From Eledone cirrhosa (Eukaryota), in contig OZ024764.1 of the NCBI GenBank assembly GCA_964016885.1, positions 10,912,001-10,976,000 on the forward strand: a stretch of 64,000 nucleotides of DNA, in the 5' to 3' direction. How positions within the stretch are numbered: position 1 is the stretch's first letter; every line of letters starts with the position of its first letter. Positions 2,281 to 8,220 of this stretch are shown piece after piece. The notes beneath the pieces are model-generated. The model searched no databases, was not told the origin of the DNA, and saw only the letters and a program-made list of their open reading frames with translations. A program made the translations under genes and the position numbers.

Positions 2281-2346
2281 TATTTTGTCTGAAGAAGGCA
2301 TAACATATTGTTAATATGATATCCCTGAAATATATATAACGAAATA
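2281..2346 (+). ncRNA. Type I hammerhead ribozyme motif (family A; element ~2098-2387)
   Basis: tattttgt-CTGAAGA-agg..catatt gtt aatatg..cct-GAAA-tatata-TA/acgaaata: 8-bp helix I, folded helix II, palindromic helix III. Confidence 0.8.
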
Positions 2347-2529
2347 AATATGGTTTTATAAATATAGTTTCCATTTATTTAATATCGTATATATATATAT
2401 ATATATATATATATATGTATATATATATATATATATATGTATATACATATATATATACATATATATAGATAGATAGATAAAAAGGATAAAGATCCCATAA
2501 CACCTTGTGGAATGAACACAACTGATTTT

Positions 2530-2684
2530 TTCTATAGTGGAAGACTCTACCTCAGTACATGACTGGTACTTTTTTTATGAACCTCGAAAGGGTTTGGTGG
2601 GATTTGAACTCAGATCACGCAATACGGCGGGACGAATACCTTAAAGTATTCTATCTGATGCCTTAACGACTCTGTCACTTTGCT
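2530..2684 (-). mobile_element. tRNA-derived SINE (Meta-domain-like), diverged
   Basis: Reverse complement of gagttcaaatcc..cctttcgaggtc..aaagtaccag shared with 5490 and 9567 copies. Confidence 0.6.
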
Positions 2685-4703
2685 GTATATATATATATAT
2701 ATATATATATATATATATATATATATATATGTATATATATATATATATATAATAATACATATGTATAAAAGTATATATATATATATATATATATATATAT
2801 ATATATGTATATATATATATATATATATATATGTATATATATATATATATATATATGTATAAAAGTATATATATATGAATACATATATATGAATATATAT
2901 ATGAATATATATGCGTATATATACATATATATGAATATATATGCGTATATATATACATATACAAACATGTACATATATTTATATGTTTATATACATGTAT
3001 ATATATGCGTGTATATATATATATATATATATACATGTACATACATATATATATATATACATATGTATATATATATATATATATATATATATATATATGT
3101 GTGTGTGTATATATATATATATATATATATATATATATATATACATATATATATATATATATATATATATATATATATATATATATATATGTATATATAT
3201 ATATATATATATCTGTAGGTGTCTATCGGAACGTGGGTAGCAAATGAAACCCAACCCCCCCCCCCCCCCCACGGGCTCCCCGACCCCCAACGTTCACGGT
3301 CAGCCAGTTGGTCACGCCTCGTTAATCCAGCTTGTTCCCGTGTCTCGTTGCAGTAACTCTCACCCCTCAAGTCTGTAGCCACTCAGCCGTGACCAGACAA
3401 ATCATCTCATCTTTACATCACCACCGCCGCCGCCATCACCATCACCATCATCATCGCCGCCGCCGCCGTCGTCGTCATCATCATCATCATCATCATCATC
3501 ATCATCATCAATGTCTTCAATATCATCAACATACATACACACACAGATGCATATATATATATATATGTATGTATGTATATGTGTGTGTGTGTGTGTAGGT
3601 GTGTAGGTATGTATATGTGTAGTTATATATATATATATATATATATATATATATATACATATATATATATACATATATATACATATATATATATATATAT
3701 ACATACACATATATATATGTAGGTATATATATAAACATATATACATATGTGTAGGTATATATATATATATATATATATATATATATATATATATATATAC
3801 ATATATATATATATATATATATATATACATATATATATGTAGGTATATATATAAACATATACATATATATGTAGGTATATATATATATATATTTACATAT
3901 ATATATATATATATATATATATATATATATATATATATATATATATATATATATACACATATATATATGTGTAGGTATATATATATATATATATATATAT
4001 ATATATATATATATATATATATATATATATATACACATATATATATATGTAGGTATATATATATATATATATATATATATATATATATATATATACACCA
4101 TATATATATAGGTATATATATAAACATATATATATGTAGGTATATATATATATATATATATATATTTATATACATATATATATATATATACCTACATATA
4201 TATATATATATATATATATATATATATATATATATACATATATATATATATATGTATATATATATATATATATATATATATATATTCAAAACAACGTCAG
4301 CGGAGGACGCGTTTCGCACCTTTCCGACAGACAGCCTTTCCCCCACCCCGGAAAACAACCCCTGTTGATGGATGTGAATCCGAAATATATAGCGACAATT
4401 AAATCTCTCCCAAGGTAACTCTCTCTCGTGCTGTTATTTTAATTTTATCCTTTATACTCTTTCCTTCATTCTTCTACACATCTCACACATCTTATACACG
4501 CCACGCATCTCAACGTACACCCACTTACATCTCTCTCCACCACCGGACCTTGTTACCCGGAGATTTACCCATTTGCATTGTCGAGGCTTCCAAACGACTT
4601 GAAGAAATTTACCTTATTATTCCACAATGCTTCAAGCAAACTTCAATACTCTCTTATCCTTACACCATATATATATATATATATATATATATATATATAT
4701 ATA

Positions 4704-4856
4704 TAGTAATAATAATAAAATTGAAGACTAAAATCCAAAGAGGGCTCGATAAGGAAAATATATATCAAATATATAAGAACCGTAGAGCAAATATTTATTA
4801 AAATAACGAAAGCAGCGATTCTTTGCTTAAACTTTAATCTGTTATTTTAATAAATA
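4704..4856. mobile_element. Family C hammerhead-bearing element, internally inverted; ribozyme 3' half starts at GAAA (4808)
   Basis: Matches 27000-27124, 29637-29810 and 40200-40262; flanked by (TA)n. Confidence 0.65.
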
Positions 4857-5489
4857 TATATATATATATATATGAAAAACAAGGGGAGAAGAATATTGCA
4901 TGGTTGCACATCGATTACATATTATAAAATTAGTCCCTCATCAGTGATTTGCCAACCATCATTGGTATTTCAATATATATATATATATATACAGGATACA
5001 GGTAATTACGTTTCATTGGTCTCTGTACACCAATTCATTATATATATATATATATATATATATATATATATATATATATATATATATATATATATATATA
5101 TATATATTTCGTTTCTGAATTTGTTTAGCAAGATTCTTTATCTGAAATCGTGTGTTGAAACCGATATTGTTATACTTTGGGAGGGTCAACCAACCAACCA
5201 ACCAACCAGAAATTTATAATTTGTAAATTTATAAATATATAATAAATTGAAGTGAAAGCAACTGGTGCGTATGTTTCTTATTGGCAACATGACCCTCCCA
5301 AAGTATAACAATATATATATATTTATATATATTTAATACATTAACAGAGAAAGCCTTAAGCGATACTCTGACCAACTCCATCTCACTCAACAAACATTAG
5401 GATATACCTAAGTATAATCCCAATTTAGTGTTTGGGGTGCTAACTAATCAGTATTCCGTGGATAGCTGGTTGTATTATTTTATATGAGA

Positions 5490-5650
5490 CATTCGGACGT
5501 CATGCTTTCCAGCATAGTTACGTCCCTTTACGATCTGAGTTCAAATCCCGCCGAGGTTGACTTTGCCTTTCATCCTTACGGGGTCGATAAAATAAAGTAC
5601 CAGTAATGCACTGGGTATTTGCTGGCCTTGTGCCTAAAGTAGAAACAATT
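5490..5650 (+). mobile_element. tRNA-derived SINE with Meta-like central domain
   Basis: B-box gagttcaaatcc followed by gcctttcatccttacggggtcgataaaataaagtacc; near-identical to 9567-9750. Confidence 0.75.
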
Positions 5651-5741
5651 ATTAAATAAACATCTCTTTCCTTCCAGACGATCGTTTCGTTATAAGATTT
5701 CTACAATTTGGGATATAGGTACCCCAGAGGTACGTACCCCT

Positions 5742-5808
5742 CTCTCTCTGATGAACGATCTAGACGTACTTTAATACTGTCTTGGGTCCTGAAACCTTTG
5801 GTAATGGA
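5742..5808 (+). ncRNA. Hammerhead-like motif with weak helix I
   Basis: CTGATGA (5748), long imperfect helix II (agac..gtct), GAAA-cc ttt gg-TA; helix I not convincing. Confidence 0.4.
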
Positions 5809-6093: not shown

Positions 6094-6231
6094 ATATATA
6101 TATATATATATATATATATATATATATATATATATGGAGAGAAGGGGCAGTGAGACAGACAGTCAGTTTAAATGAAGACTTGACATGCCAGGCTGTAAAA
6201 TATATTTGATTTACTGAAGTGAGATAATTTC

Positions 6232-6367
6232 AACTACAACAACAACAACTACAACTACCACCACCACCACCACTACAACAACTACAACTACCACCACCAC
6301 CACCACCACTACAACTACCACCACCACCTCTACTACTACTACTACTACTACTACTACTACTACAACA
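6232..6367. repeat. (CAA)n/(CCA)n/(CTA)n trinucleotide microsatellite
   Basis: Directly visible. Confidence 0.9.
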
Positions 6368-6755
6368 TATGCTTAGTACAAACGAAATGAAGACATCATT
6401 TCTATTTAAACAGATGGTTAGTATTTCGGTGCGAAAGGGTTCGTGTCATGGCGGGGGGGGGTGCTGGTGGTGCTGGTGGTGGTGGTGCTGGTGCTGGTGG
6501 TGGTGGTGCTGGTGGTGAAATCGATACCCAAAAGCATGAAGTTGTAAAGCAAACCACTAGTATATTATCCTATCTCCCCCCCCCTCTCACACTCTCTCTC
6601 CCTCCCTCTCTCTCTCTCTCTCTCTCTCTCTCTCTCTCTATATATATATATATATATATATATATATATATATATATATATGATTTTTAATTTCGTATTT
6701 ATAAAGAAATACGTTATGTACATCCGTCCCTTCAATCTTTCTAATTTCTCCTTCT

Positions 6756-6792
6756 TTCTTCTGATGAAGGACTAGCGTCCGAAACGTTAAAA
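6756..6792 (+). ncRNA. Minimal Penelope-type hammerhead motif
   Basis: CTGATGA-a-ggac tagc gtcc-GAAA-cgtt: perfect 4-bp helix II, palindromic AACGTT helix III, weak helix I; downstream sequence recurs inverted at ~28525-28600. Confidence 0.6.
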
Positions 6793-7216
6793 CCCTCTTC
6801 CCGCTATTTCAAATATTAACCTAATATACTCCTTCCATATACTGTACCGATTGTGTTGTTATTTCTGTTTACCTTTTACACATATATATATATATATATA
6901 TGCTCATGAAATCCACACAGCTTAAGCTGATCGGACTCCCATGTGCTTCTTTTTTCGTATCTTTGCGTTGCTATCCTTCTATGTTTGTTTGCTTGTCTCG
7001 CTCGCTTTACGCGATTTACTTGTCCCAATAGCTTTATTTAGTTATTGCTCGCACCAACTGGAGGTATATGATGTTTAAAGCGATGAAATACCAATGAAGG
7101 TTGGAAAATCACTGATGAAGGACTATTTTATTCATATGTAACCCATGTGCAACCACGCAGTATTCATTCTTCTCATGTTATATATATATATATATATATA
7201 TATATATATATATATA

Positions 7217-7614
7217 ACGAAGGAAATGTGGTAAATAACCAGGTGGACCATAACGCACCAAAGTACTCAATACTTAGGGTAGTAGAGTGGGTAATAGGAA
7301 CGAGTAGGGCCCCAACGGCTGAGCTCAAGCCGTTTCGACGGCTAATTCTGTACTCATTGAGTACAGAATTAGCCGTCGAAACGGCTTGAGCTCAGCCGTC
7401 GGGGTCTTACTTGTTCCTATATATATATATATATATATATATATATATATATATATATATATATATATATATATATATATATATATATATATATATAACA
7501 AAGAAAGTGTGGTAAGGAACCAGGTGGACCATAACGCACCAGAGTACTCAATACTTAGGGTAGTAGAGTGTGTAATAACAAAAGTGTCAGGACCCCGACG
7601 GCTGAGCTCTGGCC
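7217..7614. mobile_element. Two adjacent family F copies (7217-7418 with hairpin; 7497-7614 truncated) separated by (TA)n
   Basis: High similarity to 5881-6093. Confidence 0.8.
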
Positions 7615-8154
7615 TATATATATATATATATATATATATATATATATGTGTGTGTGCGTGTGTGTGTGTATGTATGTATGTATATATCAACCAAATTACT
7701 TCTCTAAAAACCTAGCATTTCGAGCCACTTTTTTTTCCATATAAAACAGAAGTAACATTCGAATAGCAACCAGATGTGAGAAAAACCACAGACCCTCCAT
7801 CTCAACTCTACTTTTGAAAACGCACAAGAACTGCGAAACCAGTAAAGGAACCAAATAAATATATAAAAAAAGAAAACCAGACCCCAGTTGCATTTTCGAT
7901 TTCATCTTTTTTTCCTTATACTTTCACTCGTGTAGGACACATCTTTCTTTTTCATTTTGTAAAAATACCTCACTTTCTAATATATATATATGTGTCTGTG
8001 TGTGTGTGTGTGTGTGTGTGTAGAAGTTGTATTTAATTTGTTGGAATTCCGACAAACATAAATGTTTATAACTGATTTAGAGCACTCAACAGTTTAGTGG
8101 AGTAAATATTCCATGATATTAAATAAATGGAAACTATATTTATAAAACCATATT

Positions 8155-8220
8155 TATTTCATTATACATATTTCAAGGGCCACCAGAGCAAACTATGGTG
8201 CGCTTTCATCAGATAAAATA
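8155..8220 (-). ncRNA. Type I hammerhead ribozyme motif (family A; element ~8114-8443)
   Basis: Minus strand: tattttat-CTGATGA-aag..cacca..tggtg..ctt-GAAA-tatgta-TA/atgaaata; covaries with the 2281 copy. Confidence 0.8.

Follow-up and report, generated by a model that had tools for sequence, protein, structure and literature searches.

The locus considered here raises the question of why two hammerhead ribozyme motifs, which lie 6 kb apart on opposite strands of the genome of Eledone cirrhosa, differ in their helices and still appear to share one fold. They are located in a stretch of 64,000 nucleotides (contig OZ024764.1, positions 10,912,001 to 10,976,000; "the window", whose own numbering is used below). 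A first-pass annotation, made from the letters alone, had attributed their differences to structure-level selection on a self-cleaving RNA in the source elements. Judged by sequence, the motifs are type-I minimal hammerheads in the pseudo-long terminal repeats (pseudo-LTRs) of a Penelope-like retrotransposon, called family A below, and come from two of its subfamilies. It is probable that they are pseudo-LTR hammerheads of a Hydra-type Penelope-like element (PLE) in dead, truncated insertions, with a fold that was under selection and a predicted ability to cleave; self-cleavage is suggested by the conserved core and by analogy with published relatives. The motifs are laid out as follows, with cut sites placed by hammerhead numbering.

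2281..2346, plus strand: hammerhead 1, with helix I at 2281-2288/2339-2346, CUGAAGA at 2289-2295, helix II at 2296-2326, GAA at 2327-2329, palindromic helix III at 2330-2337 and A2338 as H17.
2338/2339, plus strand: predicted cut of hammerhead 1, between these two nucleotides.
8155..8220, minus strand: hammerhead 2, with helix I at 8220-8213/8162-8155, CUGAUGA at 8212-8206, helix II at 8205-8175, GAA at 8174-8172, helix III at 8171-8164, A8163 as H17 and the predicted cut between 8163 and 8162.
2347..2385, plus strand: block 3' of the ribozyme, the same in both window copies at 39 of 39 positions, just upstream of a short 3' terminus.

The coordinates of both motifs had been annotated correctly, and each motif presents the core in type-I order (CUGANGA, GAAA, U16.1-H17), with a helix I of 8 bp plus a bulged extension. 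The islands around them, whose homology the first-pass annotation had left to be established, are 71% identical over 326 nt (E 1e-35). The shared flanks and core that it described hold for the 39 nt 3' of the motif and for the core except at N7 (6/7 identical), which is A in copy 1 and U in copy 2 as claimed; the GAA is identical (3/3), and each strand of helix I matches at 7/8 positions. The reported change of a G-C pair to an A-U pair in helix I is real: copy 1 reads TATTTTGT/ACGAAATA (G2287-C2340) and copy 2 reads TATTTTAT/ATGAAATA (A8214-U8161, minus strand). Helix III differs as well (AUAUAUAU versus AUAUGUAU, 7/8 identical); this difference was overlooked at first, as were the palindromic nature of helix III and the PLE that carries the motifs. 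Helix II, 31 nt long in both copies, matches at only 14/31 positions without gaps, and both versions fold as had been stated (-5.5 kcal/mol in copy 1, -9.3 in copy 2). Its outer six pairs are A-U, G-C, G-C, C·C, A-U and U-A in copy 1, and A-U, A-U, G-C, C·C, G-C and C-G in copy 2, with three compensatory differences (G-C/A-U, A-U/G-C and U-A/C-G) around the common C·C mismatch at pair 4. The G10.1-C11.1 pair is absent from both copies, an A-U pair being found instead. Two sequences alone prove little, because the folding energies of the 66-mers do not differ significantly from those of shuffled sequences (z -0.83 and -0.10) and because a scan of the window with Rfam at the gathering score gave no hammerhead match, only a tRNA-like one. 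The case against chance is the comparison across the family, which one pair in two sequences could not replace.

For this comparison, 309 motif matches in 210 loci and the window were resolved into 263 distinct places and 114 haplotypes, a non-random sample of loci picked for their resemblance to either copy, to the open reading frame (ORF) of the element or to a pattern. The pair that changed in helix I (pair I.2) is A-U in 118 places, G·U in 82, G-C in 61, A·C in none and otherwise in 2, and the G-C/A-U difference characterises subfamilies, with G·U as the bridging state. Position N7 is U in 146 places, A in 84, G in 26 and C in 7, and the other core bases vary in single copies only. The first-pass view that helix II had been replaced proved wrong, wholesale replacement being ruled out by intermediate haplotypes: in an alignment of 34 hand-picked haplotypes, single substitutions and 1-nt indels connect the two homologous helices, which diverged stepwise. 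In the same alignment 97.4% of cells pair, and double changes number 42 versus 17±4 in shuffles, both measures being inflated by relatedness.

Selection in the source elements can be separated from decay because the family is young and very large, with many subfamilies and intact reading frames, which permits a contrast within one genome between changes shared by a lineage and changes private to one insertion. On trees of 259 copies (of the 263, one was dropped for a short flank and three as deleted or misparsed), internal branches represent source lineages and terminal branches mostly post-insertion decay. Pairing is kept in 32/34 lineage changes versus 13/44 private ones when helix II pairs 1 and 4 are excluded post hoc, in 35/41 versus 17/49 (p 1.4e-6) when pair 1 is restored and lineages span two loci, and in 43/46 versus 33/88 on a tree built from flanks only. 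Among transitions from Watson-Crick pairs, for which a strand-symmetric neutral process predicts 50:50, pairing is kept in 16/20 lineage changes on the whole-region tree (binomial p 0.006) versus 7/15 private ones, and in 22/23 versus 14/27 on the flank tree (p 0.0005). Double changes occur on 5-9 lineage branches. The ten positions comprising the fixed core and H17 have undergone no lineage change and 16 private ones. N7, the one hammerhead core base known to be free, has undergone 10 lineage and 5 private changes, and the flank from +9 to +20 has undergone 21 and 35 (Fisher 6.8e-5 for core versus N7, 0.0035 for core versus flank). Selection on the core and the structure in the source elements is thus well supported, since lineage changes keep pairing, the core has no shared changes against 16 private ones and N7 is free. 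On the tree of 259 copies the original claim of structure-level selection therefore stands, pair I.2 alone being a small part of the evidence for it.

Several results weigh against this conclusion. The motif anchors tolerated only 2-3 substitutions and so favoured intact cores. At the core-adjacent pair 10.1-11.1, 58/263 copies have a mismatch (A·C, U·U or A·A) and only 3/263 have G10.1-C11.1. Of the covariation anticipated for a larger alignment, the keeping of pairs by lineage changes was found, and significance by counts was not: pairs with a double change number 5 versus 4.2 expected (191/500 shuffles), and the count of further pair types was reached in 314/500 shuffles. RNAalifold, given the 34 haplotypes, chose another helix and did not recover the hammerhead fold. 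Only a handful of internal events (seven) affect pair I.2, and the contrast between lineage and private transitions on the whole-region tree has a Fisher p of 0.07. Controls with slid partners were also positive (p 0.0004-0.06 on the whole-region tree), and therefore transition bias explains part of the first signal.

These controls, together with the small number of independent events per pair, leave some room for covariation of neutral or mutational origin, through common ancestry, a bias towards transitions, decay of CpG sites, A-to-I editing within stems or repair of DNA hairpins. This explanation is very unlikely. The C of copy 1 does lie in a CpG, but both helix I states are subfamily traits, and for this reason decay of single copies at CpG was rejected as the source of the G-C/A-U difference. 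A>G accounts for 11/16 of the pair-keeping lineage transitions, but the flanks lack the strong excess of A>G over T>C (19 versus 25; 31 versus 32) by which editing would be indicated. Private transitions are divided about evenly (7/15, 14/27), as neutrality predicts, whereas lineage transitions are not. None of these processes would freeze an unpaired catalytic core.

The mismatch at pair 4 of helix II (2299/2323 in copy 1; 8202/8178 in copy 2) is an observation of its own: C·C, or C·U in a sister family B, is kept in 254/263 copies, and it persists across families whose ORFs are 48% identical. It faces a bulge in the extended helix I, and a tertiary contact is possible.

The element that carries the motifs was found by fetching inverted or tandem motif pairs 3-4 kb apart, followed by protein search. 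Between such pairs lie single open frames of 745-750 amino acids; frames of 745-748 amino acids show reverse transcriptase (RT; YRDD) and C-terminal GIY-YIG endonuclease (EN; IIY..YVG) motifs. ORFs are linked to subfamily 1 at loci L081 and L161-L165 and to subfamily 2 at L096, L002 and L017, and those of the two subfamilies are 72-77% identical in amino acid sequence over long aligned stretches. In the full-length L081, successive motifs are 3,747 bp apart, and the start codon is located 188 nt downstream of the predicted cut. Pfam matches were weak: GIY-YIG was detected below the cut-off (E 0.0011) in one of five proteins, and the RT family in none. Atlas neighbours of the ORF proteins carry HTH_animal, GIY-YIG and RVT_1, which may serve as a lead only. 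The architecture is of PLE type, comprising a partial-tandem pseudo-LTR, a 5'-inverted copy, an optional tail and a hammerhead within the pseudo-LTR. A tail of about 95 nt is present on 124/218 family A motif copies and absent from 94/218. A dinucleotide microsatellite adjoins 88/94 short and 96/98 long termini (184/192), by a test that also accepted CA, TG and TC runs, most of the printed cases being TA. A degenerate pattern of 27 nt covering the 3' half of the motif had 39,311 exact matches, which count arms and not insertions, in the 3.0-Gb genome, and its reversed control had none; candidates for the subfamilies of copies 1 and 2 number 4,122 and 1,091. Family B, 48% identical to family A in amino acid sequence, has AUGCGCAU as helix III and open frames of up to 821 amino acids, and its pattern gave 25,298 matches (control, 18). 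A family B remnant consisting of the 3' half of a hammerhead and a tail is present in the window at 1619-1816 (minus strand), 98-99% identical to family B loci.

Protein motifs point to the Hydra clade of PLEs for the carrier. The family A protein possesses RRIRWR, KSDKTNN, a CxCX5C linker (CNCRDRSKC) and no CCHH; a single Cys lies between IIY and YVG, and CDLCAE (CxxC) and CRH (CxH) flank the EN E and N. The site of the RWK motif reads RWR in family A and RWT or RWI at the homologous position in family B. Neptune and Naiad assignments were ruled out by motifs and domain order. According to Craig et al. 2021 (PMC8557442), Hydra-clade elements, including Hydra-1_Obim of Octopus bimaculoides, have an RW[K/R] motif, of which the family A RWR may be a form, and share with family A the DKT and CxCX5C motifs, the lack of CCHH, CxxC and CxH around the EN E and N, (TA)n targets and a hammerhead near the 3' end; their units are generally shorter than 3 kb. 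Many of their listed hammerheads are likewise mismatched at the first pair of helix II, several lack G10.1-C11.1, and the printed N-terminal 400 amino acids of Hydra-1_Obim appear colinear with the family A ORF, as judged by eye. Family A differs from Hydra-1_Obim in its unit of 3.75 kb (versus 2,507 bp), in a hammerhead unrelated in sequence to the one listed there, in its abundance (motif copies in the tens of thousands) and its intact frames, and in such specifics as a helix II region of 27-36 nt, a conserved mismatch of pyrimidines at pair 4 and a palindrome of even length (8 nt). Its tail is about 95 nt long versus the 30-40 bp stated for PLEs.

Neither window copy is such a full-length element: both are insertions in (TA)n that have lost their 5' part, are partly inverted and contain no ORF, and a tblastn search of the window with the element ORF gave no match.

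2093..2190, minus strand: copy 1, inverted 5' arm corresponding to the ~95-nt 3' tail of subfamily 1, with (TA)n to its left.
2191..2204, no strand assigned: copy 1, inversion junction with short duplicated filler sequence.
2205..2385, plus strand: copy 1, 5'-truncated pseudo-LTR of subfamily 1 in the tail-less form, ending ~48 nt 3' of the predicted cut, into (TA)n.
8022..8124, minus strand: copy 2, 3' tail from a third subfamily, 98-99% identical to subfamily-3 loci with a different hammerhead.
8125..8342, minus strand: copy 2, 5'-truncated pseudo-LTR body of subfamily 2, 99% identical over 217 nt to L003-L005, L008 and L009.
8344..8445, plus strand: copy 2, inverted 5' arm corresponding to the subfamily-2 tail (98% identical to subfamily-2 tails), then (TA)n.

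The inverted arm of copy 1 is 100% identical over 96-98 nt to the tails of L081 and others, and its pseudo-LTR is 99.4% identical over 181 nt to ORF-bearing loci and 98.4% over 191 nt to L081; the body of copy 2 is 95.8% identical to the ORF-bearing L096. By its sequence copy 2 is a chimera, with a subfamily-3 tail and yet an inverted arm with a subfamily-2 tail, the two being 82% identical. Counted from the predicted cut, the crossover falls somewhere from +4 to about +39 nt, and therefore not at the cut itself; it could have arisen by template switching, by homology-primed insertion into a relative or by later conversion. Copy 2 is the only clear tail chimera among 98 testable copies, three other tail-discordant copies having no clear match to a neighbour's tail or being apparently rearranged. 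Elsewhere, at L096:4800-5170, L168 and L150, insertions of different subfamilies or families are stacked beside or inside each other at (TA)n.

The terminal inverted arms of copy 2, about 100 nt long, and the lack of an ORF in the majority of copies might suggest miniature inverted-repeat transposable elements (MITEs) or tandem retrozyme units instead of truncated PLE insertions. This possibility is largely refuted and has next to no likelihood: inversion junctions vary from copy to copy and this sequence elsewhere runs without a break into RT-EN frames, which rules out MITEs, and short head-to-tail arrays of the motif were not seen among the fetched loci.

If the window copies are PLE remnants, selection would have acted in active masters and not on the two copies themselves. 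In lineages that spread, the catalytic bases and three helices stayed constant while N7, the loop of helix II and the identities of pairs drifted through G·U. Helix III is self-complementary across families (AUAUAUAU, AUAUGUAU, AUACGUAU, AUGCGCAU); its hairpin is unfavourable (+4.7 kcal/mol), and its self-duplex has energies of -3.2/-2.2, or -10.5 in family B. An 8-nt palindromic helix III with no stable hairpin implies dimer-dependent activity, and two ribozymes may pair through it, as tandem copies in one transcript or as two RNAs. The two window copies, on opposite strands 6 kb apart, cannot dimerise within one transcript. Paired ribozymes would cut slowly, probably aided by the protein of the element, and so process tandem or read-through transcripts into unit RNAs.

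The 5' ends of insertions hold no footprint of cleavage: none falls at the upstream cut site or up to 10 nt from it in 72 arms that include the 5' untranslated region (UTR), taken from 70 loci, the first listed of 250 matches, and an earlier set of 30 also gave 0/30. Among the 72 listed arms, 50 cross the upstream cut site and 48 hold the whole upstream ribozyme. Ends at +49 numbered 2/30 and then 2/72, with no growing pile-up, and the 5/72 at about +141 lie beside the search anchor and may partly be an artefact. In four partial tandems, pseudo-LTR pairs within single insertions, compared with regard to a linear versus a circular template, have 0-3 differences in at most 176 nt. From the absence of starts at the cut and the reading through of the upstream site it follows that the templates of insertion had either escaped cutting or been religated after it. 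The RNA that is reverse transcribed may thus be uncut, or a circle closed by religation after the cut; the endonuclease would nick (TA)n, reverse transcription would begin at the +48 or ~+140 site, and the 5' end would be resolved by truncation and inversion. Insertions end at +48 or about +140 nt past the 3' cut site, which speaks against a model in which the cut simply sets the limits of the template.

The same observations could mean that the fold was selected as a structural signal (a protein-binding, RT-positioning, or promoter or UTR element) and that cleavage was negligible. This alternative is unlikely, if less so than a neutral origin. It would accommodate the lack of insertions beginning at the cut site, the frequent mismatch of the core-adjacent pair and the equal conservation of the adjacent 39 nt in the two window copies, and mutants of the Poseidon PLE ribozyme insert normally in vitro, with no RNA ends at the cut (PMC11167929). 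It does not account for the fact that precisely the catalytic positions are frozen while N7 takes all four states, and the flank from +9 to +20 accepts lineage changes (21).

A further idea, doubtful and argued from analogy, is that the palindrome of helix III may be a family-specific address for dimerisation. Retroviral RNA dimers form through a kissing palindrome. RNAs with compatible palindromes would similarly pair, cut, religate into template circles and recombine beside the ribozyme. If so, subfamilies of family A (AUAUAUAU/AUAUGUAU) could swap ends, as happened in copy 2 no more than 40 nt from the cut; family B (AUGCGCAU) would be isolated from family A, and strong selection on the core would be reconciled with the lack of insertions starting at the cut site.

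Published hammerheads of other elements resemble those of family A in part. For metazoan PLE type-I hammerheads, a dimer model and low activity in vitro have been published (Cervera & de la Peña 2014, PMC4209133), the minimal forms showing no activity as monomers and little as dimers (PMC4209133; review PMC6765202); G10.1-C11.1, described as highly conserved, is not conserved in family A, and helix I of family A is longer. The hammerhead of PAc/Poseidon from Anolis carolinensis is cleaved with the assistance of protein, and insertion in vitro does not require the cut (Frangieh et al. 2024, PMC11167929). That element has, like family A, two 3' termini bounding the tail, AT-rich targets and uncut RNA as the apparent template, but it belongs to a different clade, and its cut falls inside the ORF start, whereas that of family A precedes the ATG by 188 nt. 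Non-LTR retrozymes (bioRxiv 10.64898/2026.07.22.740005) also carry a type-I hammerhead of PLE origin; they are non-coding tandem repeats, whereas family A consists of dispersed, truncated copies of an autonomous, ORF-linked element.

The window contains several other repeats. At 6745-6800 (plus strand), another repeat family present in several fetched loci has a minimal hammerhead-like motif that differs from the two above, with CUGAUGA, a short helix II and a GAAACGU palindrome. The hammerhead-like motifs at 17110-17190 and 21300-21400 (both plus strand; the latter with a long helix II and a ACCGAUCGGU palindrome) lie in repeated elements with relatives among the fetched loci, where a candidate at 5748 has none. 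A short repeated element, whose interior holds a long and perfect palindrome with CGGCTGAGCTCAAGCCGTTTCGACGGCTAATTC arms, is found in (TA)n at 5882-6093, 7216-7418 and 7497-7615. Tandem arrays occupy 17989-19640, 30609-31836, 32883-34051 and 52297-53206, and their units measure 69/72, 72, 79 and 61 bp; the array of 72-bp units is present in both orientations. A tRNA-like sequence at 40666-40726 (minus strand), just above the Rfam threshold, is probably the head of a short interspersed nuclear element. Arrays of C2H2 zinc fingers with TGEKPY linkers (clustered ZNF) are encoded at 37869-38906, 46199-47065, 55426-56298 (minus strand) and 61378-62367 (plus strand). Together with the TA-rich DNA and the relatedness to Hydra-1_Obim, this cluster would fit an octopus as host.

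The literature already describes hammerheads in pseudo-LTRs, motif families that covary, pairs on opposite strands, tails, and a hammerhead-bearing Hydra-clade element from an octopus, and the phenomenon is therefore of low surprise. No description of this particular family was found in a literature search, and the element may already have an entry in Repbase, Dfam or the O. vulgaris library; ribozymes are not mentioned in the portion consulted of the main text of the O. vulgaris repeat annotation (PMC13282606). The role of PLE hammerheads is openly debated, including the possibility that they are mere parasites of PLEs (Craig et al., PMC8557442), and the contrast between lineages and single insertions in family A bears on this debate. 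Its natural variants are available for assays. In family A the catalytic core and all three helices have been under purifying selection although inserted templates read through the cut, which argues that the motif matters to the element.

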